Positions 5,440 to 42,800 of a DNA stretch of 64,000 bases are shown here, piece after piece. A program made the translations under genes and the position numbers. The stretch is taken from positions 96,001 to 160,000 of the IMG/VR virus record IMGVR_UViG_3300010965_000001. One strand, 5' to 3'. The notes under the pieces were generated by a model. That model did no database searches. It was not told the origin of the DNA and was given only the letters and a program-made list of their open reading frames with translations. Source of the DNA: a virus (Duplodnaviria; Caudoviricetes). Within the stretch, counting starts at the first letter, position 1; every line of letters starts with the position of its first letter.

Positions 5440-6252
5440 TTAATCAATAATAGTCGTTCCAAAAATGACTTGTTTTGGACTGAACTGCTTCTCTACACTT
5501 CCAGCCGCAAGTGCAAGGGTTTTGTTTATAGTAGCGGGAACCAAATAACCACTTATTTCTAAGTTAAATGTAGTTTTTACGGTTCTCTGTGTATCTGCAA
5601 CTGAATCGATGCTTGTGTTATAACTTTGAATCTTGGTTCTAAACTTGAATCGTTCTTTATCACCCCAATAACTACCTTCACTGTAAAGGATAGCTTCAAC
5701 AATTTTGTTCATTTGGTCTACTGCTTCTGTCAATACTAAGAAGTCGTATGTCATAGTCACGTAGTCAGGAATTACAACATTGAAAAGTTCCTCTGTGGGT
5801 TTTGTATTCACACTTATTGAAAAATTATCATATCGATTATTCGCTGACCATTTTTTCTTAAATGAATAGAACTGCAGTGGATTGTTGGCATCCATTTTGT
5901 CAATCGCATAGTTATCATCTTTTGAAACTGTGTTACGTTTGAATGCAATGATTGGAAGGATGATTTTATCTTTTTCATCTTTAAAGAATCCATCTCTCTG
6001 AACACTTTTCCATCGTTCGGGATTGGCATAGATTACGGGAACGTCTACTGTCATACCATTTTCTTCTACTTTTGGTTTGATTACGTTCACTACATAATAA
6101 CGAACTGCTGCATCGATGTCACGTAAAGTAACTGTAAAGTCCTTTACTGTATCACTGGCACGACTCGTCATGGTTCCACGATTTAATGGAAGTTCTTCCT
6201 GTCCTGTAGAAATTTCTACTTGTGTTTTTGGAAGTTGTGGGTCTACGCTCAT
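5440..6252 (-). CDS. gp15: Tail completion / sheath stabiliser (gp15-like)
   Basis: VPVIYANPERW, IILPIIAFKR, VIPDYVTMTYDF, QMNKIVEAI; follows the neck genes and precedes the sheath. Confidence 0.7.
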   Translation of the reverse strand: MSVDPQLPKTQVEISTGQEELPLNRGTMTSRASDTVKDFTVTLRDIDAAVRYYVVNVIKPKVEENGMTVDVPVIYANPERWKSVQRDGFFKDEKDKIILPIIAFKRNTVSKDDNYAIDKMDANNPLQFYSFKKKWSANNRYDNFSISVNTKPTEELFNVVIPDYVTMTYDFLVLTEAVDQMNKIVEAILYSEGSYWGDKERFKFRTKIQSYNTSIDSVADTQRTVKTTFNLEISGYLVPATINKTLALAAGSVEKQFSPKQVIFGTTIID

Positions 6253-6725
6253 TGTGCATCTCCTGCTCTAAATTCCTGAATCTGAATCTTGCTCTTACGT
6301 GTCATATGAGCATTACATACAATAGTATAATTCCAATTTTGGTCTTGCTGACCTGCCGCTAAAGTATTTTCATTATAGTTATGAATTTCATAATACTGCC
6401 CATTCCACAATACAATGTCTCCAATTTCAGGATATACATTCTGCGCGCGCAGGATTTCTCTTTGAAAATTCAGTACGATATTTTGATTAACATCGATACC
6501 CATTTCACCATATTCTGCAATTTCAGGGTCATGCGCAATTAATGCATACAGTGTGACTGGTGCGAAATAAATTTTATTAAGCATATCACCATATAAATCG
6601 TCATCACCCATTGAGGACACGGCAAGTTTATACAATTGGATGGGAGTTTCGATAATAGTTTCCACCAATGTATGTGCTATGGTATTAAATAAATCTAAAT
6701 CTCGTTGTCTTAAAAATAGTTGCAT
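6249..6725 (-). CDS. gp14: Neck / head-closure protein (gp14-like)
   Basis: LFLRQRDL, DDLYG, PEIGDIVLWNGQYYEI; sits between the gp13-like and gp15-like genes. Confidence 0.65.
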   Translation of the reverse strand: MQLFLRQRDLDLFNTIAHTLVETIIETPIQLYKLAVSSMGDDDLYGDMLNKIYFAPVTLYALIAHDPEIAEYGEMGIDVNQNIVLNFQREILRAQNVYPEIGDIVLWNGQYYEIHNYNENTLAAGQQDQNWNYTIVCNAHMTRKSKIQIQEFRAGDAQ

Positions 6726-6736
6726 GTATTTCCTTC

Positions 6737-7897
6737 TTATCCAATGTAAATGAGTAATGGTACATATGATAACTTACCATGTAAATAGTCTGCCTCATTT
6801 TTTTCTTTTTCAAGTTGTGCGTCTCTTGACACTTTCTCAAGATTCTCACGAAGTTGTGCAATTAATTTATCTTTGTCTGCTTGTCCTTCTGTTCGAAGTG
6901 TTGCACCATCCAATGTAAGTTCTGAACCAGGAATTGGAACAGTGGAGTATTTTGAACGAATGTTGCCAAGTAATTCTTTTGATAAAGCCAATGTATATTG
7001 ACGAATCCATTGTCTACCAACATCGTTGATAAATTGATATGTTGGATTGTCAAATTGTGCATTAGAATAGTCCGATGTAACGCCTGTTGGTGATGCAAAA
7101 GAACCACTACCAAGTGCATTATTTCTATCACCAGTTACCATGTAATCAAAATACAATGGATAATCGTATGTAGGAATTGGACTAAGTTTTACCTTGTTAT
7201 TATACATTCTAAATGAGAATGCACTTCTTCGAATCATATCATTAAATTCAATCGACTGCATACGAAGTAAATCTGCGTAAAGGGGCATCAACATAAATGA
7301 TACACCTGTTGAATATCCAGTAAATCCAAATTCCTGTAACATTGAATATGTTCCAAGACCTGTTCCCGCGAATGGGTCAAAGTAACGTGCGATAGCAGGA
7401 ACATTTTGATGATACATTGCACGAATTTCAATTGTTTTTCCACTTTCACTTACTTCTGCCCATGCATTCAAATCATATTCAGTTTGATTACGTCTTACTT
7501 GAATCATGCCTTTTTTAATATCATAGTTTGGACTTACATTTGCTTCTGCTCCATACTGTTGAGAAATTGTAATAGTTCTTCCCATGTTAGGAATAAGTAA
7601 ACGATTTGTCAAATTCGATGAAGTTGGTGAACCTTGAATGTTCAACATATTTTCTCTTATAAGAAACTGATTTATCTGCGCACCATACTCCGTGATTGCT
7701 TCTTCAAAACAAGTGAAGAAAGAACCACTCTGTAATTCGATTTCAACAATCGGATAACCAAGTTTTCGCGCACAGAAATCTGCGACCCGCGGTGCTTCAA
7801 ACACATACAATGGGTCATCTTCGTAAAGCATGAACGGCGTCATTCCAGATGCAGTAAGATACGTTGCACTGCCGTCCCAAATAGGGGTTGTTGCCAT
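6737..7897 (-). CDS. gp13: Neck / head-tail adaptor (gp13-like)
   Basis: LGYPIVEIEL, CFEEAITEY, WIRQYTLALSKELLGNIRSKY..VPIPG..LTLDG, PLLIYIG. Confidence 0.8.
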   Translation of the reverse strand: MATTPIWDGSATYLTASGMTPFMLYEDDPLYVFEAPRVADFCARKLGYPIVEIELQSGSFFTCFEEAITEYGAQINQFLIRENMLNIQGSPTSSNLTNRLLIPNMGRTITISQQYGAEANVSPNYDIKKGMIQVRRNQTEYDLNAWAEVSESGKTIEIRAMYHQNVPAIARYFDPFAGTGLGTYSMLQEFGFTGYSTGVSFMLMPLYADLLRMQSIEFNDMIRRSAFSFRMYNNKVKLSPIPTYDYPLYFDYMVTGDRNNALGSGSFASPTGVTSDYSNAQFDNPTYQFINDVGRQWIRQYTLALSKELLGNIRSKYSTVPIPGSELTLDGATLRTEGQADKDKLIAQLRENLEKVSRDAQLEKEKNEADYLHGKLSYVPLLIYIG

Positions 7898-7906
7898 GTG
7901 TTATCC

Positions 7907-8083
7907 TTATGGTTTGTATTTTGTTATTTTTCCCAAAATTGTAAAATTTGATTTAGCACCTGTTTGGGTGGTATTGGTCATTTTGGGTGTGAATCCACGT
8001 TCAAATTTATCAGAAAAAAAGTTTGTTATTGATAATTTTGCGAACGGTGATGAGGTTTTCTTGAATATGTCAAGTAATGCCAT
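7907..8083 (-). CDS. Small hypothetical protein, 58 aa (below the track cutoff)
   Basis: MALLDIFKKTSSPFAKLSITNFFSDKFERGFTPKMTNTTQTGAKSNFTILGKITKYKP*; SD AGGAG; TATTTATA at 8111-8118; its stop lies just upstream of the gp13 start. Confidence 0.65.
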   Translation of the reverse strand: MALLDIFKKTSSPFAKLSITNFFSDKFERGFTPKMTNTTQTGAKSNFTILGKITKYKP

Positions 8084-8110
8084 GATTTTCTCCTGTGATG
8101 GTTATTTAGA

Positions 8111-8179
8111 TATAAATATCGGATTGTAGTTAAAAAGTGTTGCTTTATTTAAATTTATAACTAAAATTTAATATTTATA
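8111..8179. promoter_or_regulatory. Back-to-back divergent TATTTATA promoters (minus 8111-8118, plus 8172-8179)
   Basis: One octamer faces the neck genes and the other faces the GH18 gene. There is also a weak sigma70-like TTGCTT-16-TAAAAT on the plus strand at 8140-8167. Confidence 0.55.
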
Positions 8180-8229
8180 GACAATGGTAACGTACCTACA
8201 CAAACACAACTAACAAAGGAGAAATATAA

Positions 8230-10359
8230 ATGAAAAAGATTTTAATCGCAATATTACTTGCGTTAACGGTTCTCACATCGACTGCACATGCTGGTAAGTG
8301 GTTTACTACTTACTACGCGGTGTGGTCTTATCAAGCAGTTGGAACTGCACCAAATTCATGCCCACCGTGGGAAATTGATTGGAATGGACTAACACACATG
8401 GTGTTGTTTGACAATGGAAATGTAACACAGAATCCACCGTATTGGGCGTACATGTTTGCTGGAACTGGAAAACCAAAAAACGGAAATATACAAGCAGGTA
8501 GACCAACTGACACAGAATCGGACTCTACAGAAATTCATTATGCGGGAATTTCAAATCCAGGAAATGGAACGTGGCCTAAGTATTTGGACAGTCTTGTCAC
8601 AATTGGTCACAGAAACAACGTAAGAATGTTTATTACCATTCAAGGAGTAAATCCAACCAATCTAAATGCAATCGCAAATGACTCTGCAAAAGCACAGGTA
8701 TTAGTAAATACACTTGTTGCATGGGCTGAACGAAAAAAGTTTGATGGAGTTGAACTTGATTGGGAAGGGTGGGCTGTTCCACTTCCTCCAACTCCAATCG
8801 TAAGTAGATTTGTCCGTCTGTTGTATAGACGATTACAAACAATGAAAACAGGTCTTGGTGGAAGAGCGCAGTTGCTTGTTGCTGGCGGAAGCAATTATTG
8901 GGATAAGTATGACCCAGAACAAGATTATATGGTTGACCAATACAATTTAATGATGTATGACTACACATTTGCATGGGATGATGCCGCTGCAAGAAATGGA
9001 GTATGGCATATCTCTCCATTATATCATGGATATAAAGGTTCTTCGTACATGGGACTCAAGTGGGATTTCCCAAGTTGGCAAGGTGGTTCGTATGAAGACC
9101 GTGGACCTTTACAGTGGGCACAGAAAGGACATGATATTAAAAAGATGGGAATTGGTATACCGACATATGCAGATGTATACATCGGCACTAAAACCTTTAG
9201 AAGTGGATTCAGTCAAATCATGTCTAATGGTCCATATAAAGTTTATGAAGGACTAAAGTCAATTGGTGGTACAAAGGTTTGGGATGATGCTCAGAAGGTT
9301 GAACATACTTATGGAAGAACAACTGCGGCATATCCTTGGTGGTGGTATCAATCGATTCCTGCCAACACAGACTATTATGCAGTATCAGAAACTCCAGCAT
9401 CAATCGCAATGAAATACGAATGGATAGTTAAGATTGGCGCAGGTGGGGTAATGACATACGATTATTGCAATGACATGAATGGTGCATATCCGAAGGGTGA
9501 CAAACGTAGGCATCCGTTAAATAGAGCAGTAGGTGATGCTATTTTAGGATTGCCACCAACACCAGTTGACAGTTCGATTATTGCTCCTCCAGATACAACG
9601 GCAGTTCCACAACCTCCAGTGGATGGTGGAATGGATGTTACAAGTGATTCTATCTTCGTTGGTAAACAACTTATTACACCGTGGAATTCTGACCGTTCTT
9701 GGGCAATCGGTGTTAATTGGAATGGAGATTCGGCAGTAGTAAATTATTCCGCATGGGGTGGATTACAATTGGCAGTTGGTGGTTGGGATAGATATGTTAT
9801 CGTTGATACTGTTAAATATGACTCAATTAGATTTAACGTAAAGACTGTGGCAGGGAAGAATATTAACATGTTCAGTGGATTCCAAAGTTCAATAGATTCT
9901 GGATACATGCGCATTGATGTGAAATCATTCCCAGTGTCAGATAAATGGGCAACACAAACATTACACATTCCATTCCCTTGGTATATGTTCTATGTACAAG
10001 TATCTGATGGGTCTGTGCAAACAGTTTACTTCGACAACTTTATATTGATTCCAAAAGTTGGTGTGACGCCTCCAGATACAATAAAACCGATACCACCGGC
10101 GTGTGATACGGTATTTGTGACGGACACGGTTATAGTTGCTCCACCACTTAAAACACCAACTGCAAGTATTTCATCTATTCCAGGCACGACATTCTTAATA
10201 TGGAATTCATGTGGAGCAGATGCAGTTAAGATTGATAAGTATGGACCAGTGGCAACGACAGGACATAAGAATGTACTACTTACAAAGACTACTACGTTCG
10301 TATTAACAGCAACGAATAAGGCAGGAAGTGTAAGTGTATCGACAACGATGTTGAAGTAA
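8230..10359 (+). CDS. Secreted GH18 (chitinase-like) glycoside hydrolase with a CBM-like and an Ig-like C-terminal domain
   Basis: Sec signal MKKILIAILLALTVLTSTAHA; GLTHMVLF; catalytic FDGVELDWE; YNLMMYD; MGIGIPTY; GAGGVMTY; two Pro-rich linkers separate the C-terminal domains; SD AAAGGAG. Confidence 0.8.
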   Translation: MKKILIAILLALTVLTSTAHAGKWFTTYYAVWSYQAVGTAPNSCPPWEIDWNGLTHMVLFDNGNVTQNPPYWAYMFAGTGKPKNGNIQAGRPTDTESDSTEIHYAGISNPGNGTWPKYLDSLVTIGHRNNVRMFITIQGVNPTNLNAIANDSAKAQVLVNTLVAWAERKKFDGVELDWEGWAVPLPPTPIVSRFVRLLYRRLQTMKTGLGGRAQLLVAGGSNYWDKYDPEQDYMVDQYNLMMYDYTFAWDDAAARNGVWHISPLYHGYKGSSYMGLKWDFPSWQGGSYEDRGPLQWAQKGHDIKKMGIGIPTYADVYIGTKTFRSGFSQIMSNGPYKVYEGLKSIGGTKVWDDAQKVEHTYGRTTAAYPWWWYQSIPANTDYYAVSETPASIAMKYEWIVKIGAGGVMTYDYCNDMNGAYPKGDKRRHPLNRAVGDAILGLPPTPVDSSIIAPPDTTAVPQPPVDGGMDVTSDSIFVGKQLITPWNSDRSWAIGVNWNGDSAVVNYSAWGGLQLAVGGWDRYVIVDTVKYDSIRFNVKTVAGKNINMFSGFQSSIDSGYMRIDVKSFPVSDKWATQTLHIPFPWYMFYVQVSDGSVQTVYFDNFILIPKVGVTPPDTIKPIPPACDTVFVTDTVIVAPPLKTPTASISSIPGTTFLIWNSCGADAVKIDKYGPVATTGHKNVLLTKTTTFVLTATNKAGSVSVSTTMLK

Positions 10360-10360
10360 T

Positions 10361-10397
10361 AAAAAGGGAGTGCTCTTGGTAGGGCACTCCCATTTTT
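10361..10397. terminator. Bidirectional Rho-independent terminator
   Basis: AAAAA-GGGAGTGCTC-TTGGTA-GGGCACTCCC-ATTTTT between two convergent stop codons. Confidence 0.9.
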
Positions 10398-10401
10398 ATG
10401 C

Positions 10402-11313
10402 TTATTTTATAACTGTAAGTTTCTTCGTTTCTGAAAATTTATCTACGGTAAGACGATATACATACATACCGCTTGTCAAATCTGATGCAAGCAACACTCT
10501 TGAATAATTTCCTGCTGTAAGCGTCTCTGCAACAAGTGTCTTTACTTCTCTACCAGTAATATCAAATACTGTTAATCGTGCAAATCCACTTATTGGAAGT
10601 GTAAACGAAATTGTGGTAGAAGGATTGAACGGATTTGGGTAGTTTTGATTCAATAAGAATACAGAAGGTGCCAATATATTCACTTCAATTTCATCGGAAT
10701 ATGTGAACGCACCATCTCTATCAATCTGCTTCAATCGATACTGAACAGTTCCATTTGCAGTTTTATCAGTAAATGAATAATCCTTTGGTGAACTTGACGT
10801 TCCTGCCCCTGTAACAAATCCAACCTTTGTCCACACACCATCCCTACGTTCGATGTCAAACCCGAAATTATTAGTCTCTGTGGCGGTATTCCAATTAAGT
10901 GTTACGACAGTTCCCTTTGCCTGTGCGGTGAATGATGTAAGTTCAACAGGAAGTGCATCAAATAAAAAGTAATGACTTTGCTCTGAGGAATACCCAATCG
11001 CTTTTGCAGTTATTCTAAAACCATTGTGATATACGGTTGATGCGTTTACCTTTATATCTGTGAATTTTGCAACTCCACTTACGGTAGTTTTCGAAAGTGT
11101 TCCCGACAATGTACCTTCACCGTGAGTTAAACTAAGTGTGACAAGTGCTTCACTATCACCAGAATGCCACTTGTGAATTGCAACGATTGGCTGTTTTGAT
11201 AAGAGAACGTTTGCACTATCTCCGTTAGGTTGCTGGCTAAATTTAAGACTTGAACTGAAAGTAAAAGTCGTAACCATAAGTAACATTGTTAAAAGTTGTA
11301 TAAGTTTCTTCAT
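10402..11313 (-). CDS. Secreted protein with an Ig-like domain, an LPVELTSF domain and a type IX secretion system C-terminal sorting domain
   Basis: Signal peptide MKKLIQLLTMLLMVTTFTFS; LPVELTSFTA..VTLNWNTATETNNFGFDIER; C-terminus LNQNYPNPFNPSTTISF..LTVFDITGREVKTLV..LTSGMYVYRL..TKKLTVIK. Confidence 0.88.
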   Translation of the reverse strand: MKKLIQLLTMLLMVTTFTFSSSLKFSQQPNGDSANVLLSKQPIVAIHKWHSGDSEALVTLSLTHGEGTLSGTLSKTTVSGVAKFTDIKVNASTVYHNGFRITAKAIGYSSEQSHYFLFDALPVELTSFTAQAKGTVVTLNWNTATETNNFGFDIERRDGVWTKVGFVTGAGTSSSPKDYSFTDKTANGTVQYRLKQIDRDGAFTYSDEIEVNILAPSVFLLNQNYPNPFNPSTTISFTLPISGFARLTVFDITGREVKTLVAETLTAGNYSRVLLASDLTSGMYVYRLTVDKFSETKKLTVIK

Positions 11314-11360
11314 ATGTTTATCCTTTATATAGTTTTATGATAAGATTGTCTTATCACTTA

Positions 11361-11368
11361 TATAAATA
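11361..11368 (-). promoter_or_regulatory. Putative late promoter TATTTATA for the T9SS cargo gene
   Basis: Exact octamer about 47 nt upstream of the ATG, in the gene's orientation. Confidence 0.55.
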
Positions 11369-11394
11369 TACAAAGAATAAACTTCTGTAAATAG

Positions 11395-11428
11395 TTAGAA
11401 CTTTCTAATGAACATTAGAAGTTTCTAA
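11395..11428. repeat. Near-perfect 16-bp inverted repeat
   Basis: TTAGAACTTTCTAATG-AA-CATTAGAAGTTTCTAA, overlapping the HNH gene stop codon. Confidence 0.7.
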
Positions 11429-12114
11429 TATTTCCCCTTACTCAAATTCTCTTTCCACGGTAACATTGTCAAATTACTGTATTTTGCTATCTCTTTTGGA
11501 GGTATTCCATTGTCAAATCCACAACGAACTCCTACAATATGGTCTATTTGATATGCACCCTCTACACCGCAACGTCCACGTTTATCAAAATTTTCAAGAA
11601 TTGGATTCTCACGTAATGACTTATATGTCTCTTTCCATACGTCTGCTTTATATCGTTTCCAAATTGGAAATTTCTCTTCATACTCTTCCCATGAGGAGAA
11701 GCCTGCTTTGACGGCGCGCATTTGTTTTATACCATCCTCTGTTATGACATCGTTCCAAGTCTTTTTATATTTGTAATTTGCACATCCGTCACAAATTGCG
11801 TTTATTTTATCCGCACGTTTTCTATTATCATCCCTCGCATAATACAGCACTTTGCCACAGTCAGGACAGTTTCTTGTAAATTTAGCTGGTTCACTTTTCT
11901 TTCGTCGTGCCGTTTGGTCATGATTCGGTTTACGTCCTTTCAATGCCTTGGACAGTTGACTGCGTTGCTTCTTCGAAATAACTTTGCAATTAAGATTTGC
12001 CTTGCCACCGCATGTGCGACCATTTCTAATTGCTCCATCTCTATTACTTTTAGTTGAGTGATAAACAGTACCACCACATTTAGGACATTCTCTCGACCAT
12101 TCTGTAATTTCCAT
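11425..12114 (-). CDS. HNH endonuclease-like protein with two Zn-ribbon repeats
   Basis: RECPKCG and RNCPDCG..CDGC; C-terminal YQIDHIV...NLTMLPWKENLSKG. Confidence 0.7.
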   Translation of the reverse strand: MEITEWSRECPKCGGTVYHSTKSNRDGAIRNGRTCGGKANLNCKVISKKQRSQLSKALKGRKPNHDQTARRKKSEPAKFTRNCPDCGKVLYYARDDNRKRADKINAICDGCANYKYKKTWNDVITEDGIKQMRAVKAGFSSWEEYEEKFPIWKRYKADVWKETYKSLRENPILENFDKRGRCGVEGAYQIDHIVGVRCGFDNGIPPKEIAKYSNLTMLPWKENLSKGKY

Positions 12115-12141
12115 AATTTTTTCCTTTTATAGTTGTATTAT

Positions 12142-12170
12142 AATATAAGGAATATTTTGGTTAAAGTCAA
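12142..12170 (-). promoter_or_regulatory. Sigma70-type promoter for the HNH gene
   Basis: TTGACT (12170-12165), 17-nt spacer, TATATT (12147-12142), immediately after the capsid terminator. Confidence 0.65.
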
Positions 12171-12174
12171 GGCA

Positions 12175-12205
12175 TAAAAAAGGAGAGCGTTTCCGCTCTC
12201 CTTTT
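12175..12205 (-). terminator. Rho-independent terminator after the major capsid gene
   Basis: AAGGAGAGCG-GAAA-CGCTCTCCTT plus a T-tract on the minus strand. Confidence 0.9.
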
Positions 12206-12230
12206 CAAATCTACAACAATTACCACCAGA

Positions 12231-13883
12231 TTAAAGCGTCTGCAATTTGCAGATGACCTTCCCGTAAAACTCAGGGCGAACCATCTTCTTTGCATATCTT
12301 GTGAGCACGCCTTTTCTTGGTGTGAAATTTGACGGGTCATAAACCAACGGTGTCATAACAAGTGGCACGTATGGTGCATAAACCGCACCTGTCTCAAGGA
12401 ACTGCTGTCCACGGAATCCAACGAGGATTGTGTTTTCCAACATGTAAGGATTCTTATAGACGGTGAAGCGGTTGTTGATTGCTCCGACCTTCTGAACACC
12501 CATTGCATATTGCTGTTTGTCGCCATTCGTATCGGCCGAATATCCAGGAATTGACTCAAGGATTGTTGACACTTCTGGTGAACAGACAAGGAAGTTTGCA
12601 CCCCCTCTCATTGTACGCTGATGAATCTTGTTGCTTACCTTCTGAACCTTGGTAATCAACGTCTGATACCAGGTCTGCTGTGTGTATGCAGATGCTGCAT
12701 TAACACTTGAATCCATTTGGAATGTACTCGTACCTGCATCAAAATATTCACCAGTTCTCGCTGACCAATATTCCGTGGTCAATGCGTTTTGAATCAACAT
12801 GTCAAGGATTTCCAAATCGATTTCCATCGAGATGTATTCCGACAACATGCTTGTTAATTCTGCTTCCGCGTCGATTGAATGGAATGCATTCAAGTCTTGC
12901 GCGAATTCAGGTGTCCACACTGCTTTCAACTTACGTGTTTTTGCCACGATAGGAATCGAGCGCATCTCAATGTTGATTTCAGGGATAGCAAGTGTGTCAA
13001 GAATTCCTGAACCCACTGTATCTTCGAAGTCACCACGAGTTGTCTGTGTTGGTTGAACTTGGTACTGAACGTTAATGTCACCACCCGTTGCTGAACCACC
13101 CGAACCTGCAAGTGTACCAGAAACGATAAACTGAACCAATGTATCATTCGATACAAGTTTCGTGTATGCTGGGTAGAATGTTACAACTCTGGTTGCACTT
13201 GAACCACTGATGGTCCATGCACGAACACCATTCATGTCAGCGTTAGCCGATGTGAACGTCGATGCTGCCATCGTGACCTTCTGTAAACCAAATGATGGCT
13301 GTAATATAGAAGCCGAAAGGTTCATGTCATAATTCACATCTGCCCATGATGCTGAGGTAATTGTGAGTGACGATGACGCGAATGCAACACTCGTATCATT
13401 GATTGAATAACCAAAACGACCTGCACCATAAAGACCATTATTGCTAAGTGTCTCAAATGCTGAACCGCTTGTGTTACCGTACAACGATGTCTGCGAGTTG
13501 AAACCAGGCTGGTTGTTGTTATACTTAAAGTCTAAGTAGAACACAAGACCAGATGGAAGACTCATTGGTTGAACCGAAACGAATTCCTTCGAAGCGATTT
13601 CACCGAACACTTTACGAACCAATGGAAGTGCAACACCAGTCCATGCTTCCTGACCTGTGTTACCACCGATTGTTCCTGTGCCCGTTGCGTTTGCTTCTGA
13701 AATCAACTGTTTCGCTTGATTTTCAAGAAGCGTGCTCATTCCGTGCTTATCAAAGTCGGAACCCACACCTTCTAAAAGACCAGACTTTTCCCACTTGTCA
13801 ACAAGCTGTTTGGTCTCGTTAATCTGCTTGCGGTACATACCCTCTGTATTCACAAGTTTTTCTATGCCAGATAATGCGCTCAT
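12231..13883 (-). CDS. gp23: Major capsid protein
   Basis: LPLVRKVF, SVQPMSLPSGLVFYLDF, KTRKLKAVWTPEFAQDLNAFHSIDAEAELT, GAVYAPYVPL, GVLTRYAK; probable maturation site QLISE|A. Confidence 0.95.
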   Translation of the reverse strand: MSALSGIEKLVNTEGMYRKQINETKQLVDKWEKSGLLEGVGSDFDKHGMSTLLENQAKQLISEANATGTGTIGGNTGQEAWTGVALPLVRKVFGEIASKEFVSVQPMSLPSGLVFYLDFKYNNNQPGFNSQTSLYGNTSGSAFETLSNNGLYGAGRFGYSINDTSVAFASSSLTITSASWADVNYDMNLSASILQPSFGLQKVTMAASTFTSANADMNGVRAWTISGSSATRVVTFYPAYTKLVSNDTLVQFIVSGTLAGSGGSATGGDINVQYQVQPTQTTRGDFEDTVGSGILDTLAIPEINIEMRSIPIVAKTRKLKAVWTPEFAQDLNAFHSIDAEAELTSMLSEYISMEIDLEILDMLIQNALTTEYWSARTGEYFDAGTSTFQMDSSVNAASAYTQQTWYQTLITKVQKVSNKIHQRTMRGGANFLVCSPEVSTILESIPGYSADTNGDKQQYAMGVQKVGAINNRFTVYKNPYMLENTILVGFRGQQFLETGAVYAPYVPLVMTPLVYDPSNFTPRKGVLTRYAKKMVRPEFYGKVICKLQTL

Positions 13884-13914: not shown

Positions 13915-15048
13915 TTATTTTGTAATTCCAGCCAATTTTTGGAAACGTGCTGCTAACTCTGTTCCTTCGTTAATAACTGACTTTTGGACAGTTGCTACAC
14001 TTGGACGTGTTGAACCTACTGTGCGTGATGCCATTGACTCAACAATCTTATGTGCCGAATTTGACTTAGGTGCTGCCTGTTTCATGCCTGTGAATGCTTC
14101 TTCTAACGTCGAATAAATGAGTTTGCACTCTTTCAACGTAATAGCGCGGTCAAGCGTTTCAATCACACGTAACTTCTGTGATTCATTCATTGAATGATTC
14201 TTGAAAAGTTTGTTTGTGAATAAAAGTTTAGCGTTCAAAAGGTTTACTTCGTTAAGTTTGCTACGTAAAAACACGATAACATTGCGGTGTTCTTTGAGGC
14301 TCTTCTTAACTTCATTTAATTCATTTGATGAAGGTGATGCTTCGTATTCATTCTTGAGTTCTTTGATAAGTTCTTCAAGATTGACTTCCTCTTCCATCTC
14401 TGCTTCATCACCTTCCTGTGCGATTTCTTCCTTTACTGCTGTGTAGGTAAGACCTGTCTTCTTCTTTGCGAATTGACTTCCAGCCTTCTCAACACCCTTA
14501 ACTGCATTTTTTTCTGCCTTGTTAGCACCAGTTGTATTCGAAGTTGTTAAATAATCTGCGGCTTCCGAAAGTGATGCTTCTTCTTCAAGTGCACGGACGA
14601 TTGAATCAAGTGAGAATTCATCAAGTTCTTCAGGCTCTTCTTCACCTTCTGCACCAAACTCATCACCACCATCTTCAGCTGGTTCTTCTTCGAAATCCAT
14701 ATCATCACCAACACCACCTTCTGCTGCTGCAGGAGTAAGTGTTACTGTACCACTGATATTGAATTGCTCTTCACCGCCACCCATTTCCTCTTCGCCGAAC
14801 TCTTCACCTTCTGGTGCGCCAAACTCTTCTTCACCAGCTGTATCTGCGCCAAACTCTTCTCCGCCTTCTTCACCACCACCAAACTCATCTTCTTCTTCGC
14901 CATCAACTTCATTTTGAAGAGTTGCGTTGAGCATTGATTGTAATTTAGGTGCGAATGCTTCTTCAAGAGCGGCTTTTGCGTTTGCCATTGCGGTCTCACG
15001 GACGGCTTTAGCATCTGCGATAGCCTCTCGTAAAAGGTCATCTTTCAT
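13915..15048 (-). CDS. gp22: Prohead core scaffold protein
   Basis: Directly upstream of the capsid gene; LLREAIADAKAVRETA..NAKAALEEAF, a very acidic middle, LNEVNLLNAKLLFTNKLF, RFQKLAGI. Confidence 0.75.
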   Translation of the reverse strand: MKDDLLREAIADAKAVRETAMANAKAALEEAFAPKLQSMLNATLQNEVDGEEEDEFGGGEEGGEEFGADTAGEEEFGAPEGEEFGEEEMGGGEEQFNISGTVTLTPAAAEGGVGDDMDFEEEPAEDGGDEFGAEGEEEPEELDEFSLDSIVRALEEEASLSEAADYLTTSNTTGANKAEKNAVKGVEKAGSQFAKKKTGLTYTAVKEEIAQEGDEAEMEEEVNLEELIKELKNEYEASPSSNELNEVKKSLKEHRNVIVFLRSKLNEVNLLNAKLLFTNKLFKNHSMNESQKLRVIETLDRAITLKECKLIYSTLEEAFTGMKQAAPKSNSAHKIVESMASRTVGSTRPSVATVQKSVINEGTELAARFQKLAGITK

Positions 15049-33956: not shown

Positions 33957-36900
33957 TTAGAAATTCTGTGCTGACGCACCATATGTAAGTGAACCAACAC
34001 ATATAAATGTGTAAATATCTGTTTTACTTGTCGTAGCTGACGCTGTTGTTTGTGTTGGAACCGTGCCGCCCTTCCAAGTAATCGTTGCAGGCCACGATGC
34101 TGTAAATGCACTTGCCGAATTTGTCAGTATCACATTTAATGTTTGACCACTTGATGTGTTGCTAAATGTAAGTGTAGAATGTTGCGTAAGTTTTCGTGTA
34201 AACGTATTCCCAAGTGACCAATCGACATCAACGGCTGACATAGATACGGTTGACCCTATGACAGATTTTGATATAATTAAACTACCAGCGATTGCTTGAT
34301 TACCACTAAATGCATTAGAAGTTAACGTAGCAAACGAACCAGTTTGGTCACTCTTAACAAAGAATGACGCACTTACTACACTTAGTGGATTACCAAGTGA
34401 ACCATCTCCAGATAAAGTCGCATCCGTGACAACTGCTGATAGATAATTTCCAGCACTAACCGTTGTCTGACTGTATCTACTTCCAAGTAATTTATCAGTT
34501 TGAATTACACTCCAGTCATTTGCTCCAGTTTCCCGTATAATCACTCTCGCAACAAATACAAATTCTGGTATCATCGTGGATATTGCCGTAGTATTCAAAC
34601 TTGATGGAGTCAATGCTTGAATTGTCGATAGTGTAGTACTTTGTGTTTGCCCGTGGAACCATACATATCTGTATTTTTGTGACTCGGTATCAGATGTAAC
34701 GGGAACTGCAACTAACCATATCGTAGCATATGCGTTGTTTGGTAATGTCGTTCTTTGCCATACCGTGCCAGTATATTGATTGTACGTTGCACTAATTCCA
34801 CTAACAGGTACGAATTCTGCCGATTCGGTCTGGAATGAACCAGTTCCATTTACACCACTTCCAGTCAAATAGAATAACGTATAAGAGCCAGATAATGCAG
34901 TTAGATTGGTTGCAAGGTCTTCATCTTTGATGGTGGCGATTGACATGGTTGGTCTACGAAGTGAAGGTGTAACGGAATTAAGCGTTAAACCACTCACATC
35001 TGCACCAGAACTTAGATACGTTCCAACTGTAGTATGAATTGCTTCATGTACTTGCCATTGCATTAAACCATGAACTTCACGTAGTGCAAACTTATCAGTT
35101 GAAGAATAACGTACCACTGCTATTTGTAATTTATCAAACGTCCACGGAGTTTGTGACCATGTATATGAAGCACCATCATATGATAAGAACCACGTTCCTT
35201 CTGTTGTATCATGTATAGATGATGTCCATCCACTAACCAATTCCTGTATAACTTGACCTTGCCAGTATGCTACTACCGTTCCAGTCAATACTATCTGACG
35301 TGAACCACTATATGTGACTATTATTGATGTAGGATTAACAAATCCAGTTGGGTCTTTGGTTACTTCGTTCATTGTATAGTATGATGCACTTTGTGCCATA
35401 ATTGCATATGATGAAGTACCAAGTAACGACCCAGTTATTCCCGCCGCAACATTTAATGAACCAGTAACCTGTACTATGTCTCCATAAACACGCATCGGAT
35501 AACTAAATACTCCCGCAGTTGCTACACCAAACCTCATAAATCCATTATTATCTACACCATTCCTAAACGTACCAATAGAACCAATAAAATTTTCTGTTGA
35601 ACCACTCTGTAACGTAAATGTCATACTGGAACCGAACCCGTTTACCATTGTATTGTTGGTATGTGCTCTTAATGTTAAAGTTCCTGTTTCACTGTTACCA
35701 GCCGTGTTGGCACGTTGTACCCTCAAAGGTGGGAACGTATCACTAACAAAGTATCCCTTGCCAGCCACATTCAAAGAACCACTGATAATTTCATTCCCAA
35801 CAAATATGTTAGAACCAGTTGTTGCGAATACACTTGTGTCGATTGTGGGTGCCCAACTTGCAGATACTGCATATGATGCACTTTCTGCCAATCCCAACAA
35901 TATGCTTGCGGTTGCAGCATATGATGCAGATACTACTAAGCCCGCACCAGTTGAAACTACAATCTCACCAGTAAATCTTCCATCGGGAATTTCAGATACT
36001 AAAATATCTACCGTAGTTGGACTTGTCTGCCGAATAGTATCTACACCAACTTGCTCATAATATCCACTGCTACTGTCCCACAACGATATTAATAATTCTT
36101 TTGAATTTAAATTATGTACAAATGATTGAGTGTAATATGGTGATGCCAATCCCCACGACGAAGATAAAAATGTTGCTGTATACGATGACCCAGGAAATCC
36201 TGCTCCACCACTTCCACCGTTAAGTGCATATGATGCTGTAAGTGCATACGATGCTGAAATAGATGAACCACCAGGTGCCCACGATGCGCTTAACGCATAT
36301 GATGAACTCAATACCAACATAGAACTTGTTGATACTGCTGATAAAAATCCCGTATGACCTGAACTTGCATAATCTAAATTAGTCAAGTCACTATGTGCAG
36401 TTACTCCAGTTGCTGAAAAATGAATATCAAATGCACTATCAACTTGTATTGCAGTTGATACACCTTCTTGGACAATTATACGTCCTACCAATATTCCCAT
36501 AGATGCTATTCCAGGAGGAATAGAAGATGGTGGTTGTGCTGCCTGTGCATCTGATAGTTTATTGGCGTTCAATGTTCCTAATAAAACACATGCATTGTTA
36601 TAAATAGAACTAGTGGGTCCACTTTGAATGTGGCGATATACCCAATGAGTATTATAATTATTATTACTTAACGATGCCGTAGTTATACCATTGTCATATG
36701 ATGATGAATTGAACGTACTTCCAGTAACATGCGTCCAAGCACTTGCGGAATGATAATATGTGTAAATTTTCTCTGTGTTAGGTAATATTTCTAATAATGT
36801 ATGACGAACAACACCCAACCACACTTTACCTTCTGTAACTGTAACATATGAACCAGTAGTCGATACTATTAATCCACTCTCTCTCGCGTATCGTTGAGTC

Positions 36901-39900
36901 TTAACTAACCGTTGATGAAGTTTATTTGGAAGTCCTCTTCCCAATGAATCCCAATCCACCCAGTAAAGTGTAAGATTGTCTCTAAATATAGTATATACTG
37001 GAAATATATCACTCTCAGTAATTTCTTCTACATCCGTAGTTACTCTGTATATTGGATTACCACTATTATAATCTACTATGACGTAATTTGTAGCAGAATT
37101 AGTAAGAGATAAGGTGGTAATTGGTGGCATTGTATAACGTTGCATAAACCCACTATGATTTTTATTGGTATACAATCTTGAAGAACCACTTACCACAGTA
37201 ATTGTACCATTCCCATTATCAATTATAGAAGAAGTTGTAGTTATACCAGCTGCCGCAGTTACTGTTTTTTGAAATGTTAATACTGACCCGAGCGGTATTC
37301 CAGAATCACTCAATCCACTATTATTTAAAAGCATGCCGCCAGTAACGTATAAAGAACCAGTCAAAATAATAGAACCAGTTGAAATGACGGACCCACTTAT
37401 AACTTGCGTTCCTCTAAATATGTTAGATGAAGTTACTGCGAATGAAGATGACAACATTCCATTAAATAAATATGAAGTAGAAGATGTTGCCGCAAATGAT
37501 GCAGACACCACGGAAAATGCAAACGATGCTGTAGATACAAATGATGCCGTGCCAAGTAAACTACCTGTTACACCACCATTTATTCTAAGACTTCCTGTTA
37601 TGACTTGGTTACCACGGAATGTATTACTTCCAGTCGTTGCATACGATGCTGTATATGATGACAAGATTGCACTGCTTGTCACTGCTGCATTCCATTGAAT
37701 GGAATTTCCAGTTTCTCCTTCACCACCAGCGACACCAGCATATACAACTCTATCAACATATAAGTTTCCACCAGTATCTGATGCAGAACTTGATATGGTG
37801 AGAAATGCACGAACGCTACGCGCGTCAGTAATTGGTGCTGTAAGTGTTGTACCATAATCATCAGAATACAACATACCTTGTTCACCACCATAAAATAATC
37901 TAGAACCTATATGAGATACACATACACCGTAATTTACATATCCTGCAGTGGCGCAGTTCGTCCACGTTGCACCATTGTCGGTGGAACGATACAATGCACG
38001 GGTATAATCCTGCCCGGTGGCGATGAAAATATAACCATCAAATTCATCAAATCCCCCGACTGTTGGATAACCACTGAAATGTGAATACAATCCAGTATTT
38101 GATGCCGCCCATGATGCTCCACCATTATCGGAAACAAATACACCGGCGGAAGGATATACCGCACCAGCAAACAATCTTGTTGAGTTTGCGTAAACTGACT
38201 GGATGTTTGTATTAGTTAATCCATTATTCGCCACAGCCCACGTTATACCATAATCACTTGAAATATACACACCAACAGAGGTTCCCGCAAGTAATGTTGC
38301 GCCGTCGGGTGTCGAACAAATGGCATTGATTTGTGATGCTGCCATTCCATTTCTGGATTGTGTAAATATTAACTGTGTTGGTATATTGGTGATGGATGAT
38401 GAATACATTCCAAGTGAATACGTACCTACAAATAATTTTGACCCAAGTGCTTTTAAAGCACGAACCTCAACATTTGGAAGTCCGGCTGTGGATGATGTCC
38501 AATGTAATCCAAAGTCAGTTGATACAGCTACTCCAGTATTTATCGCACCAGGACCAGATCCACCTGCGTAAAGTGTAGAACCGTTACGACCCAATGCCGC
38601 AATATATGATGATGTAATTGCAGTCGTTCCACTTCCTGTGGCAACTTGAAGTGATACACCATTATCTATAGATGAATAAAGTTGGGACATGTTGGTAAGT
38701 GGGTTTACACCCATAAACAAGTAGGACGCCGCGGAGGTTGTGGTATCCGATGTTTTATACACGTACGCATTACCATATACGTTGATAGCCGCTCCTGCAC
38801 TTCCAGCGGTTGTCGTAGTTGTCGTAGTTGTAATTGGTGGGAACGATGTAATATTAGTTATATTACGATTGTTAAGACCATTTATCTGCTGTGTCCAAGA
38901 GGCTCCACCGTTTACGCTATAAAATACACCTTGGTTTTCCGTTCCAACATATAAATTATTATCAGACGTGACATTAAGTGTTGTTATAGTATAGTCAGTC
39001 AATCCGTTATTACATGCCGTCCAGGTGGCACCCATATCAGTTGATTTGTAAACTCCACCATTTACATTATAGATACCTGCATATACTGTTGTACCAACAA
39101 ATTTAAGACAACTAATATTTAGTGTTGTGGGTGGCATACCATTATTTGCCGCTCCCCACGAACGTCCGCCATTTGAGGATGTATAAATACCGTCACCAAG
39201 CGTGCCAGCAAATAAAGTCGGACCACTGTATGCAAGACTTCGTACACCACTAAACAAAAATCCACTTGTGACTTCATGGAAGGTTGACCCATTATTTGAA
39301 GATGTTACCACACCACCGCTACTAAATCCATTTGCAATAAAGATGACAGAAGATGAAATCATCATATCATAATTATACACATTGGAAATTCCTAATTGGA
39401 ATCCATTCCATGTTTTTCCACCATCTGTTGACTTGTAATATGCAGTTGGATTTGCAAGTGGTGGAATTCTAACACCGAGATAAATATCTGGACCATTCGT
39501 TACTAAGTTAGTAAGGATAATCGATGACAGTGTTGGAAAGTCTGGTGAGAGTTTCCAAGTGTTTCCATAATCAGATGAAGTATAATATACGTTGTTTGTT
39601 GTTCCTGCGAATAACCATGAGCCAGATGCACCAAGAATACCATTTACCCACGGTGCCATTGGTGTGTTGGTTACAGCCCAGTTTGCACCACCGTCAAATG
39701 AACGATACAATCCAGCATGAGTTCCTGCGAATAATGGTATGTCAGTTGTAGTTACAGAACTTGTGGTAGATGAAATATTTCCACCGTAAAATGTTTGTGT
39801 CTTATCCCAAATATTTGAAGTATGTAAGATACCCCAATCAACAGTATCACTAATCGTGCCGTACTTTATAATACCACCAGTCATTAAGATATTGCTACCA

Positions 39901-42731: not shown

Positions 42732-42800
42732 TATAAATATAATTGTTTTGAGTTAATCCTCTATTTATTATAAGGAATTATAATCAATCTAATATAAATA
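42732..42800. promoter_or_regulatory. Overlapping divergent promoter cluster
   Basis: TATTTATA on the minus strand at 42732-42739 and 42793-42800; TATTTATT on the plus strand at 42762-42769. Confidence 0.5.

Follow-up and report, generated by a model that had tools for sequence, protein, structure and literature searches.

We have examined here two convergent genes in the structural region of a T4-like phage genome, within a window of 64,000 nucleotides that covers positions 96,001 to 160,000 of the IMG/VR record IMGVR_UViG_3300010965_000001. One gene encodes a 709-residue protein with a GH18 domain and is the sole large inverted gene of a long minus-strand operon; the other encodes a 303-residue T9SS cargo protein, and the two converge on one strong bidirectional hairpin (Table 1). 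An initial annotation of the window had placed the pair between the neck and capsid genes, and profile matches to gp13-like and gp15 genes on one side and to gp23 on the other bear this out. The insert also contains two ORFs beyond the two genes of that annotation. The smaller (58 residues) may not be a gene, and the larger (229 residues), which adjoins gp23 on the cassette side, is a candidate homing endonuclease; its Pfam matches are to zinc ribbons alone, and the HNH reading comes from the motif only.

Table 1. Features of the gp23–gp13 junction and domains of the two cargo proteins. Nucleotide positions are those of the window, and residues are those of the protein named.
Feature	Position	Strand	Residues	Remarks
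gp15-like gene, downstream of gp13-like gene	5440-6252	-		PF16724 match
gp14-like gene, downstream of gp13-like gene	6249-6725	-
gp13-like neck/head-tail adaptor gene, left flank	6737-7897	-		PHROG 211 head-tail adaptor Ad2, E 3.6e-12
58-residue ORF upstream of gp13, possibly not a gene	7907-8083	-		own TATTTATA motif at 8118-8111
TATTTATA promoter-like motif, GH18 gene	8172-8179	+		51 nt before ATG
AAGGAG Shine-Dalgarno, GH18 gene	8216-8221	+
GH18 gene	8230-10359	+	709	inverted relative to operon
GH18 protein, signal peptide			1-21
GH18 protein, catalytic domain			28-415	followed by Pro/Thr linker
GH18 protein, CBM-like beta domain			about 475-624
GH18 protein, Ig-like domain			about 627-709
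Bidirectional intrinsic terminator, common to both convergent genes	10366-10391	both		11-bp GC-rich stem
T9SS cargo gene	10402-11313	-	303
T9SS cargo protein, type-A C-terminal sorting domain	10405-10641		225-303
T9SS cargo protein, LPVEL FnIII-like domain	10654-10947		123-220
T9SS cargo protein, Big_1-like Ig domain	10948-11250		22-122
T9SS cargo protein, signal peptide			about 1-21
AAGGA, T9SS cargo gene	11325-11321	-
TATTTATA promoter-like motif, T9SS cargo gene	11361-11368	-		48 nt before ATG
Zinc-ribbon and HNH-like ORF	11425-12114	-	229	phrog_5104, E 1e-25
T4-type major capsid gene gp23, right flank	12231-13883	-		PF07068, 259.6 bits; phrog_138

Both genes carry the regulatory signals of the phage. 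Each is preceded by about 50 nt, in its own orientation, by the octamer TATTTATA, followed by a Shine-Dalgarno sequence, as the initial annotation had described. The octamer is found 21 times in the window where 6.2 occurrences are expected, and genome-wide 23 of 50 sites are intergenic, lie no more than 100 nt upstream of a gene and are in the sense of that gene, whereas only five are so placed in the opposite orientation. The two genes do face each other across a single terminator, as had also been claimed, and its hairpin, which lies between an A-run and a T-run, folds on both strands (-24.7 kcal/mol on the plus strand and -19.9 on the minus strand, with z about -6 on both). Both cargo genes are predicted to be transcribed from the TATTTATA promoter-like motif of the phage itself and to end at this shared terminator, and the position of the motif before structural genes suggests that their expression is late. 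Neither the cassette nor the T9SS gene by itself was found in any RNA run listed.

The cassette is genuine phage cargo. The record represents a complete T4-like virus of 210,562 bp (CheckV, 100% complete), in which the cassette lies about 104-107 kb in. Chimerism across the cassette, which the initial annotation had raised as a point to check, was examined with independent Logan contigs; those from two runs bridge the junction of gp13 with the GH18 gene (7565-8374) as well as the junctions from the T9SS gene through the HNH-like ORF to gp23 (10896-11526, 11201-12119, and 12095-12640), all at an even depth of 5-7 and with no loose ends or joints. Codon usage is also phage-like, with the GH18 and T9SS genes ranking, by CAI, in the 76th and 80th percentiles among phage genes and having GC3 values of 0.30 and 0.26 compared with 0.35 +/- 0.08. 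Because the virus record is complete, the bridging contigs have even depth and codon usage resembles that of the phage, we dismiss misassembly. The broader proposal that the segment is an assembly chimera, or host DNA carried passively and with no role in infection, could draw on the inversion of the GH18 gene, on the absence of the cassette from every relative, and on the derivation of its sequence data from a single sample, but it is largely refuted and barely credible, given the bridged junctions, the matching codon usage and GC content, the presence of a phage-specific motif on both genes with a clean shared terminator, and the phage genes on both sides within a complete genome. The earlier view that these genes are not passive cargo thus holds.

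The junction occupied by the cassette is hypervariable. Both gp23 and gp13 are retained in 62 of 80 related loci, where the gap between them measures anywhere from 130 bp to 7.5 kb; the gaps contain PhoH, GIY-YIG and zinc-finger endonuclease-like (homing-endonuclease-like) genes, while the order gp23-gap-gp13-gp14-gp15 is conserved. A homologue of the HNH-like ORF occupies the same position in one relative (L069), and is found elsewhere in four others (L036, L043, L045, and L060). The GH18/T9SS cassette itself is present in none of the 80 related loci, and HMMs for the sorting and LPVEL domains gave no match in 1.2 Mb around gp23 of these relatives. Situated between conserved phage genes, absent from the same junction in relatives, and carrying its own promoter-like motif and terminator, the cassette has the properties of a moron at a plasticity hot spot. 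T4-like phages have hypervariable islands and homing-endonuclease hot spots, exemplified in marine T4-likes by auxiliary genes such as PhoH and in T4 by the seg and mob genes. The arrangement here is similar in that cargo lies between conserved structural genes and adjoins an endonuclease-like gene, with PhoH and GIY-YIG genes there in relatives, but differs in that two genes for envelope-targeted proteins make up the cargo, and one of them is inverted with its own promoter and terminator.

The cassette DNA has no match among GenBank phages, tblastn with the GH18 protein against 50,697 phage records gave no match at E 1e-5, back-translated GH18 patterns found none in IMG/VR, and PHROGs contains no family for either protein. 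In GenBank phages the small protein matches only three huge metagenomic phages; in LR756502 and LR756504 the match is to the LPVEL region, and in LR756500 it is a weak match of 26% identity that reaches the sorting domain.

The GH18 protein scores 76.1 bits with PF00704 over residues 28-415 (cut-off 29.6), and by inspection its N-terminus is a classical Sec signal with MKK, a hydrophobic run, and AHA before GK. Compared with the family motif DxxDxDxE, its catalytic sequence D172-G-V-E175-L-D177-W-E179 retains the acid Glu and the preceding Asp, and the middle Asp is replaced by Glu, as it is in every member of the subfamily to which the protein belongs; DGVELDWE is invariant across that subfamily and aligns to DGxDLDWE of chitotriosidase. 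In an AF2 model of the full protein the core has pLDDT values of 70-89 and the C-terminal 270 residues fall below 40, and since only the catalytic core is confident, the CBM-like fold is unconfirmed. Foldseek aligns the model with chitinases and chi-lectins (E 1e-18, TM by target about 0.70-0.73), consistent with a (beta/alpha)8 chitinase-type barrel, and from the intact motif and modelled fold we predict that the protein is catalytically competent. Its C-terminal 80 residues are an Ig-like repeat of a kind common inside giant proteins, and searches for a type-A or type-B T9SS sorting domain (TIGR04183, TIGR04131, and PF18962) gave no match.

Classical phage depolymerases are domains of virion tail spikes, or are freed only at lysis, and do not have Sec signals. 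The GH18 protein resembles them in that it is encoded by a phage and is proposed to break down the capsule or exopolysaccharide of the host, but it does not fit a virion-associated depolymerase, as a signal peptide is present and neither a tail-fibre or tail-spike module nor a match in PHROGs was found. It is also very improbable that the protein is a Sec-exported endolysin that cleaves the GlcNAc-MurNAc backbone of peptidoglycan. The signal peptide, the activity of GH18 enzymes on N-acetylhexosamine linkages, and the late-type expression suggested by TATTTATA would all suit such a role, and some GH18 enzymes do act on peptidoglycan-derived glycans. However, the phage already encodes lysis enzymes with Amidase_2 and SLT domains elsewhere in its genome, the neighbours of the GH18 gene are gp13, the T9SS cargo gene and the HNH-like ORF rather than a holin or spanin, the PHROGs result offers no support, and neither the additional CBM-like and Ig-like domains nor the exopolysaccharide locus of the orthologues described below fits an endolysin.

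The small protein has a complete set of export signals. Its N-terminus, read by eye, has MKK, a hydrophobic core and a small-residue cleavage region as in a Sec signal, and the TIGR04183-type HMM suggested in the initial annotation gave 44.5 bits against a cut-off of 23, with PF18962 at 37 bits (cut-off 27). The profile match spans residues 225-301 of 303, at the extreme C-terminus as in type-A cargo, and the domain retains every column found to be invariant across 33 homologues. The LPVEL and sorting domains are modelled as tandem beta-sandwiches with pLDDT above 90 (residues 230-303 for the sorting domain), and Foldseek matches to the sorting-domain model include PorU of P. gingivalis and FnIII tandems. 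The N-terminal Ig-like domain is poorly folded in its own AF2 model (pLDDT about 40-50), and its assignment to the Big_1/invasin type comes from ESM Atlas look-alikes only, with a TM of 0.85 on the Atlas model. The module formed by the LPVEL and sorting domains is 52-57% identical to thousands of MAG proteins from Ignavibacteriales and Bacteroidota, and the host is probably a T9SS-bearing member of the FCB group, an Ignavibacteria-like Bacteroidota. The protein is most likely a non-catalytic, glycan- or surface-binding module. A Hoc-like role in capsid decoration, considered since the gene adjoins gp23, was rejected because of the Sec signal and sorting domain. A complex prediction for the mature GH18 protein and the mature small protein without its sorting domain gave a score of 0.00, which we count neither for nor against an association of the two. 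The initial annotation had the phage using host secretion, and because the GH18 protein has no T9SS domain, use of the host T9SS is supported by sequence for the small protein only, which reads as complete Sec plus type-A cargo.

The context of bacterial GH18 orthologues is informative about substrate. Across the catalytic domain the phage protein is 45-48% identical to bacterial proteins, and its orthologues (P0002, P0003, P0006, and P0009) are MAG proteins encoded in a conserved polysaccharide-export locus with Wzz, Wza-like and WecA-type transferase genes, a context documented in two MAGs and in two contigs from metagenomes, whose source organisms are probably related. The gene order is Wzz/GNVR, Poly_export, sigma-54 activator, Glycos_transf_4, GH18 plus Big_7, and GH18, then either a T9SS-tagged gene or a fused T9SS domain. 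These proteins (motif DGxELDWEGW) share with the phage protein the invariant motif, the signal peptide, and Ig-like and CBM-like domains, and their T9SS sorting domain is fused or next door, the latter being the phage arrangement. The phage protein differs in having another domain order, no sorting domain and none of the bacterial C-terminal domain type, and in its location in a phage structural region rather than a polysaccharide locus. The subfamily is rare and uncharacterised, and these loci link it to exopolysaccharide export; two further homologues are in phage-like contigs. The comparison with homologues proposed in the initial annotation did recover bacterial relatives, but in the maximum-likelihood tree, for which the Big_7 paralogue served as root, the branching is star-like and unresolved and the phage protein sits on a long branch, and no donor can therefore be named.

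It is because the bacterial subfamily sits in this Wzz, Wza-like and WecA-type transferase locus that we infer an exopolysaccharide substrate, and the idea of surface or matrix remodelling raised in the initial annotation gains new support from it. PslG, PelA, BcsZ and PgaB are glycoside hydrolases encoded inside exopolysaccharide loci, and belong to families GH39, GH166, GH8 and GH153. The likeness lies in an exported hydrolase whose gene accompanies those for synthesis and export of a polymer that it is able to degrade, although these enzymes are of other CAZy families and the polymer link of the GH18 subfamily is predicted from gene context. A different proposal, which we think unlikely, is that the GH18 protein is an ordinary secreted chitinase, an auxiliary metabolic gene product that gives the infected cell more chitin-derived carbon and nitrogen, with the T9SS protein as an unrelated second moron. 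In its favour, sequence and fold comparisons both give chitinases and chitotriosidase as the best solved-structure matches, the catalytic Asp-x-Glu pair is preserved, and the protein has a CBM-like domain; glycoside hydrolases and genes annotated as chitinases have been reported from viruses, as has a prophage chitinase that supports host growth, and GH18 is rare among soil viral genes (14 of 1.43 million). However, the orthologues lie in a polysaccharide locus and not one for chitin utilisation, the enzyme has no outer-membrane export signal, and a lytic 210-kb phage would gain little from extracellular foraging under a structural-gene-type promoter.

The bacterial loci also bear on how the two proteins might be related. 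In three of them an untagged GH18 gene is immediately followed by a small T9SS-tagged gene, in the fourth the GH18 protein has its own sorting domain and the extra tagged gene is missing, and a 1313-residue paralogue is one T9SS cargo that combines the domain types of the two neighbours. Together with the convergence of the phage pair on one terminator and their common type of promoter motif, this could indicate a split cargo in which the small tagged protein ferries or anchors the untagged GH18 protein on the infected-cell surface, the two acting as one secreted hydrolase. We regard this as quite improbable, as the phage T9SS protein and the bacterial neighbour have only the sorting domain in common (for which reason we also make no claim of en-bloc capture), the phage GH18 protein lacks the C-terminal domain type of the bacterial untagged forms, and, given how many T9SS-tagged genes these genomes contain, their adjacency in one phage may be coincidental. 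We also know of no established case of piggyback export through the T9SS.

We somewhat favour, at little better than even odds, a model in which both genes are host-derived envelope 'moron' cargo at the hypervariable gp23-gp13 junction, with the GH18 protein cutting host exopolysaccharide and the small protein exported via the host T9SS. Two bacterial envelope genes would have been captured beside an HNH-like endonuclease gene in a T4-like phage. The GH18 protein would be Sec-exported and would cleave a GlcNAc-containing host capsule or exopolysaccharide rather than dietary chitin, acting in the periplasm while infection proceeds and in the cell's surroundings once lysis has occurred, such that progeny may escape trapping in matrix or capsule. 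The small protein would pass through Sec and then the host T9SS, and would end up either on the surface of the infected cell or released from it. The pair thus probably helps the phage to alter the sugar coat or surface of its host; superinfection exclusion, decoy activity and translocon jamming we regard as speculation, and a spanin role, which was also considered, is likewise speculative.

Phage-encoded T9SS cargo is not in itself new. In Cryophage, which has a Bacteroidota-type host, genes of a flexible region encode proteins with type-A T9SS sorting domains, some of them glycoside hydrolases, and the authors proposed that host secretion is hijacked to supply extra enzymes, to compete or to exclude superinfection (Bellas et al. 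2020, Nat Commun, PMC7468147). The two systems differ in that Cryophage is a 76-kb, non-T4-like phage and the phage described here is a 210-kb T4-like phage, and in that the Cryophage endoglucanase and GH39 protein carry the sorting domain themselves, whereas here the tagged protein is non-catalytic and the GH18 protein is untagged (PMC7468147). Because the general phenomenon was published in 2020, current views are not overturned; our analysis contributes one more to the few phages known to encode T9SS cargo, in this case a large T4-like phage whose host is probably an uncultured, Ignavibacteria-like organism. The tie between the GH18 subfamily and an exopolysaccharide locus provides a concrete candidate for both enzyme and substrate, and a possible phage-derived depolymerase of matrix or capsule. 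The split, fused and neighbouring forms of GH18 and sorting domain in bacteria also offer a simple system in which to ask whether the T9SS can export untagged partners, and if split T9SS cargo proves true, it would represent an instance of piggyback export via the type IX system that a phage has re-created independently.

The cassette formed by the GH18 gene and the convergent T9SS cargo gene is not an artefact. Logan is an independent assembly, albeit one probably made from the source sample; its contigs, from two runs of one sample, span the region without joints or loose ends at an even depth of 5-7, and they bridge gp13 to the GH18 gene (7565-8374), the T9SS gene to the HNH-like ORF (10896-11526 and 11201-12119), and the HNH-like ORF to gp23 (12095-12640). 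In codon adaptation the two genes rank at the 76th and 80th percentile of phage genes, and in GC3 they deviate by no more than one standard deviation. The initial annotation had called for a check of the contig for chimerism, and none was found, with contigs spanning the junctions at even depth and a phage-like codon usage; its description of two genes facing one shared terminator, each with the phage motif and a Shine-Dalgarno-type sequence, is likewise borne out.

The record is a single 210,562-bp virus rated complete by CheckV, of which the window (bases 96,001-160,000) carries almost all of its large ORFs on the minus strand. The cassette neighbourhood is a T4-type structural module, and the interval between gp23 and gp13 holds four ORFs, of 229, 303, 709 and 58 codons. 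The last of these may be part of the insert or no gene at all, because the 130-170-bp gaps of some relatives are too short to hold such an ORF. The 229-residue product combines a pair of zinc ribbons with an HNH-like C-terminus and has homologues at the same gp23-gp13 position in one relative (L069) and at other positions in four more; its probable identity is that of a mobile homing endonuclease, which could have helped turn over cargo at this junction.

Features of the cassette and the surrounding structural module (window positions)
Feature	Position	Strand	Remarks
gp15	5440-6252		PF16724
gp14-like ORF	6249-6725		
gp13-like adaptor	6737-7897		PHROG 211
58-aa ORF	7907-8083	minus	between GH18 promoter and gp13; own promoter motif
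TATTTATA ahead of GH18 gene	8172-8179	plus	gene-sense, 51 nt before start codon; AAGGAG follows
GH18 protein, 709 aa	8230-10359	plus	
Hairpin	10366-10391		A-run and T-run at its sides; both cassette genes converge here
T9SS protein, 303 aa	10402-11313	minus	
TATTTATA ahead of T9SS gene	11368-11361	minus	gene-sense, 48 nt before start codon; AAGGA follows
Zinc-ribbon/HNH-like protein, 229 aa	11425-12114	minus	phrog_5104
gp23 major capsid protein	12231-13883		PF07068, 259.6 bits
gp22-like scaffold, acidic ORF	13915-15048		identity from position and composition, without family match

Comparison with 80 IMG/VR loci found through gp23 (56-75% identity) places the cassette in context. The order gp22-gp23-[gap]-gp13-gp14-gp15 is kept in the 62 loci that retain both gp23 and gp13, and the gap ranges from 130 bp to 7.5 kb, containing PhoH, GIY-YIG and zinc-finger endonuclease-like genes as well as unknowns. 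Recurrent among these loci (L008-L087) are PhoH, a 199-aa partner ORF, GIY-YIG genes and other unknown families, and in L008, which at 75% capsid identity is the closest relative, the gap is occupied by one 526-aa endonuclease-like ORF. The GH18, the LPVEL domain (the middle domain of the T9SS protein) and the sorting domain are absent within 10 kb of gp23 in all relatives. The variable gap and this absence argue that, in a large clade of uncultured T4-like phages, the junction between gp23 and gp13 (7898-12230 in the window) is a hot spot of plasticity, and that the cassette is lineage-specific cargo.

Both genes carry regulatory signals. The hairpin between them is predicted to be very stable on either strand (-24.7 and -19.9 kcal/mol, z about -6), and the octamer is enriched in the window, with 21 copies against 6.2 expected. 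Genome-wide, 23 of 50 sites are intergenic, gene-sense and no more than 100 nt upstream, some of them just 4-7 nt from a start codon; in the reverse orientation only five sites are placed in this way. We regard the motif as putatively late on the sole basis that several sites precede structural genes. In the sense direction it reads (A/T)ATATTTATA, and its two central positions set it apart from the T4 late promoter TATAAATA. Sites on the minus strand of the window include those at 271, 5394, 8118, 23842, 30413, 42739, 49696 and 51552; that at 42739 and another at 42800 stand ahead of a single ORF of 2922 codons (33957-42725, minus strand).

The GH18 protein begins with what by inspection is a Sec signal (MKK, a hydrophobic run, and AHA ahead of GK), followed by a PF00704 domain at residues 28-415 whose fold model matches chitinase-type GH18 domains (E 1e-18, TM about 0.7). 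The catalytic motif D-G-V-E-L-D-W-E (residues 172-179) aligns with the DGxDLDWE of chitotriosidase and retains the acid Glu together with the Asp before it; Glu replaces the middle Asp in all eleven subfamily members, which makes this change a family trait rather than decay. Beyond a Pro/Thr linker the protein continues with a rare beta-rich domain (about residues 475-624), whose few relatives include a bacterial GH18 cargo (23% identity), and then with an 80-residue Ig-like module found elsewhere as tandem repeats in giant proteins. Neither a type-A nor a type-B T9SS sorting domain is detectable in this protein by profile search. An endolysin role is unlikely, since Amidase_2 and SLT genes are already present elsewhere in the genome. 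GH18 genes are on record from viruses, though rarely (14 of 1.43 million soil viral genes). Relatives of the present one number just ten among 5.8 billion clusters (36-48% identity), and a pattern scan finds it in only two of 185,579 species genomes.

The T9SS protein consists of a signal peptide and three domains. For residues 22-122 the ESM Atlas indicates an Ig domain of Big_1/invasin type (TM 0.85 for the Atlas model), but this identity is a lead and not proof because our own prediction models the region poorly. The LPVEL domain (residues 123-220) and the sorting domain (225-303) are modelled as confident tandem beta-sandwiches, with Foldseek matches that include FnIII pairs and PorU. The sorting domain is complete, as initially annotated, and of type A (TIGR04183, 44.5 bits; cut-off 23), and it keeps every column that is invariant among 33 homologues; no catalytic domain is present in the protein. 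The two-domain module has 52-57% identity to thousands of proteins, those named being from Ignavibacteriales, Ignavibacteriaceae, Chlorobiales and 'Bacteroidota' MAGs, and the similar proteins of five viral contigs are more distant than the bacterial ones (38-46%). Of these five contigs one is Mu-like and another has homing endonucleases. LPVEL and sorting domains occur together in proteins of two IMG/VR phage contigs (L003:7563-8663 and L004:7497-8543): a Mu-like one that encodes transposase, terminase and portal genes, and one whose genes include homing endonucleases and a head-closure gene. The only GenBank phage matches are in huge phages of 460-640 kb, at about 40% identity over the LPVEL region (LR756502 and LR756504) or weakly, at 26%, over a stretch that takes in LPVEL and reaches into the sorting domain (LR756500), and the LPVEL beta-sandwich is thus also found in megaphages.

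Four bacterial contigs carry an orthologous GH18 in one conserved and apparently hitherto undescribed locus, in the order Wzz/GNVR, Poly_export (Wza-like), a hypothetical gene, a sigma-54 activator, Glycos_transf_4 (a WecA/MraY-type HexNAc-1-P transferase), a GH18+Big_7 paralogue, the GH18, and sigma-54 and two-component regulators. In three of the four the GH18 has no sorting domain, and a T9SS-tagged gene of 342-439 codons comes directly after it; in the fourth it has its own sorting domain and the extra tagged gene is missing. The locus lies on the MAG contigs L088 (1-11000), L089 (1-11400) and L090 (1-6000), with sigma-54 and PAS regulators after the tagged gene. The two MAGs with this locus also encode second GH18 copies, which are cargos 1313 and 1372 aa long: domain-by-domain comparison shows that the first (L093:333-4271) joins GH18, Ig-like and CBM-like domains, both neighbours' domain types and a sorting domain in one chain, and a Pfam scan finds GH18 and a sorting domain in the second (L091). 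Two further homologues are on tightly packed, Pfam-poor, phage-like contigs. The Rosetta-stone-like fusion in the 1313-aa paralogue hints that the adjacent bacterial genes may act together, and the split and fused arrangements suggest that the small protein could carry or anchor the GH18; this is not supported for the phage pair, however, whose small protein has only the sorting domain in common with the bacterial partner. GH18 chemistry requires a 2-acetamido sugar at the cleavage site. This requirement and the WecA-type initiating transferase suggest that in nature the subfamily may act on a GlcNAc-containing exopolysaccharide. We give only a small chance to the phage gene being a chitin auxiliary metabolic gene.

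In the model that we favor, the phage motif drives both genes, probably alongside the structural ones. The GH18 would reach the periplasm via Sec and degrade the host's own polymer there, and outside the cell after lysis, so that fewer progeny are trapped or capsule export is stopped; the small protein would use Sec first and the host T9SS second, to be displayed or released as a binding module. The initial proposal that the phage uses host secretion to remodel the surface or matrix is partly right; the sequence indicates T9SS use for the tagged small protein only. The hijacking idea is the same as that of Bellas et al. 2020 (PMC7468147), who found T9SS type-A cargo genes in the flexible regions of a Bacteroidetes phage of 76 kb; of the three, two were glycoside hydrolases. 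What the present phage adds is a T4-like carrier, the location at a hot spot, an untagged GH18 next to a tagged non-enzyme, and the link of the GH18 subfamily to an exopolysaccharide locus.
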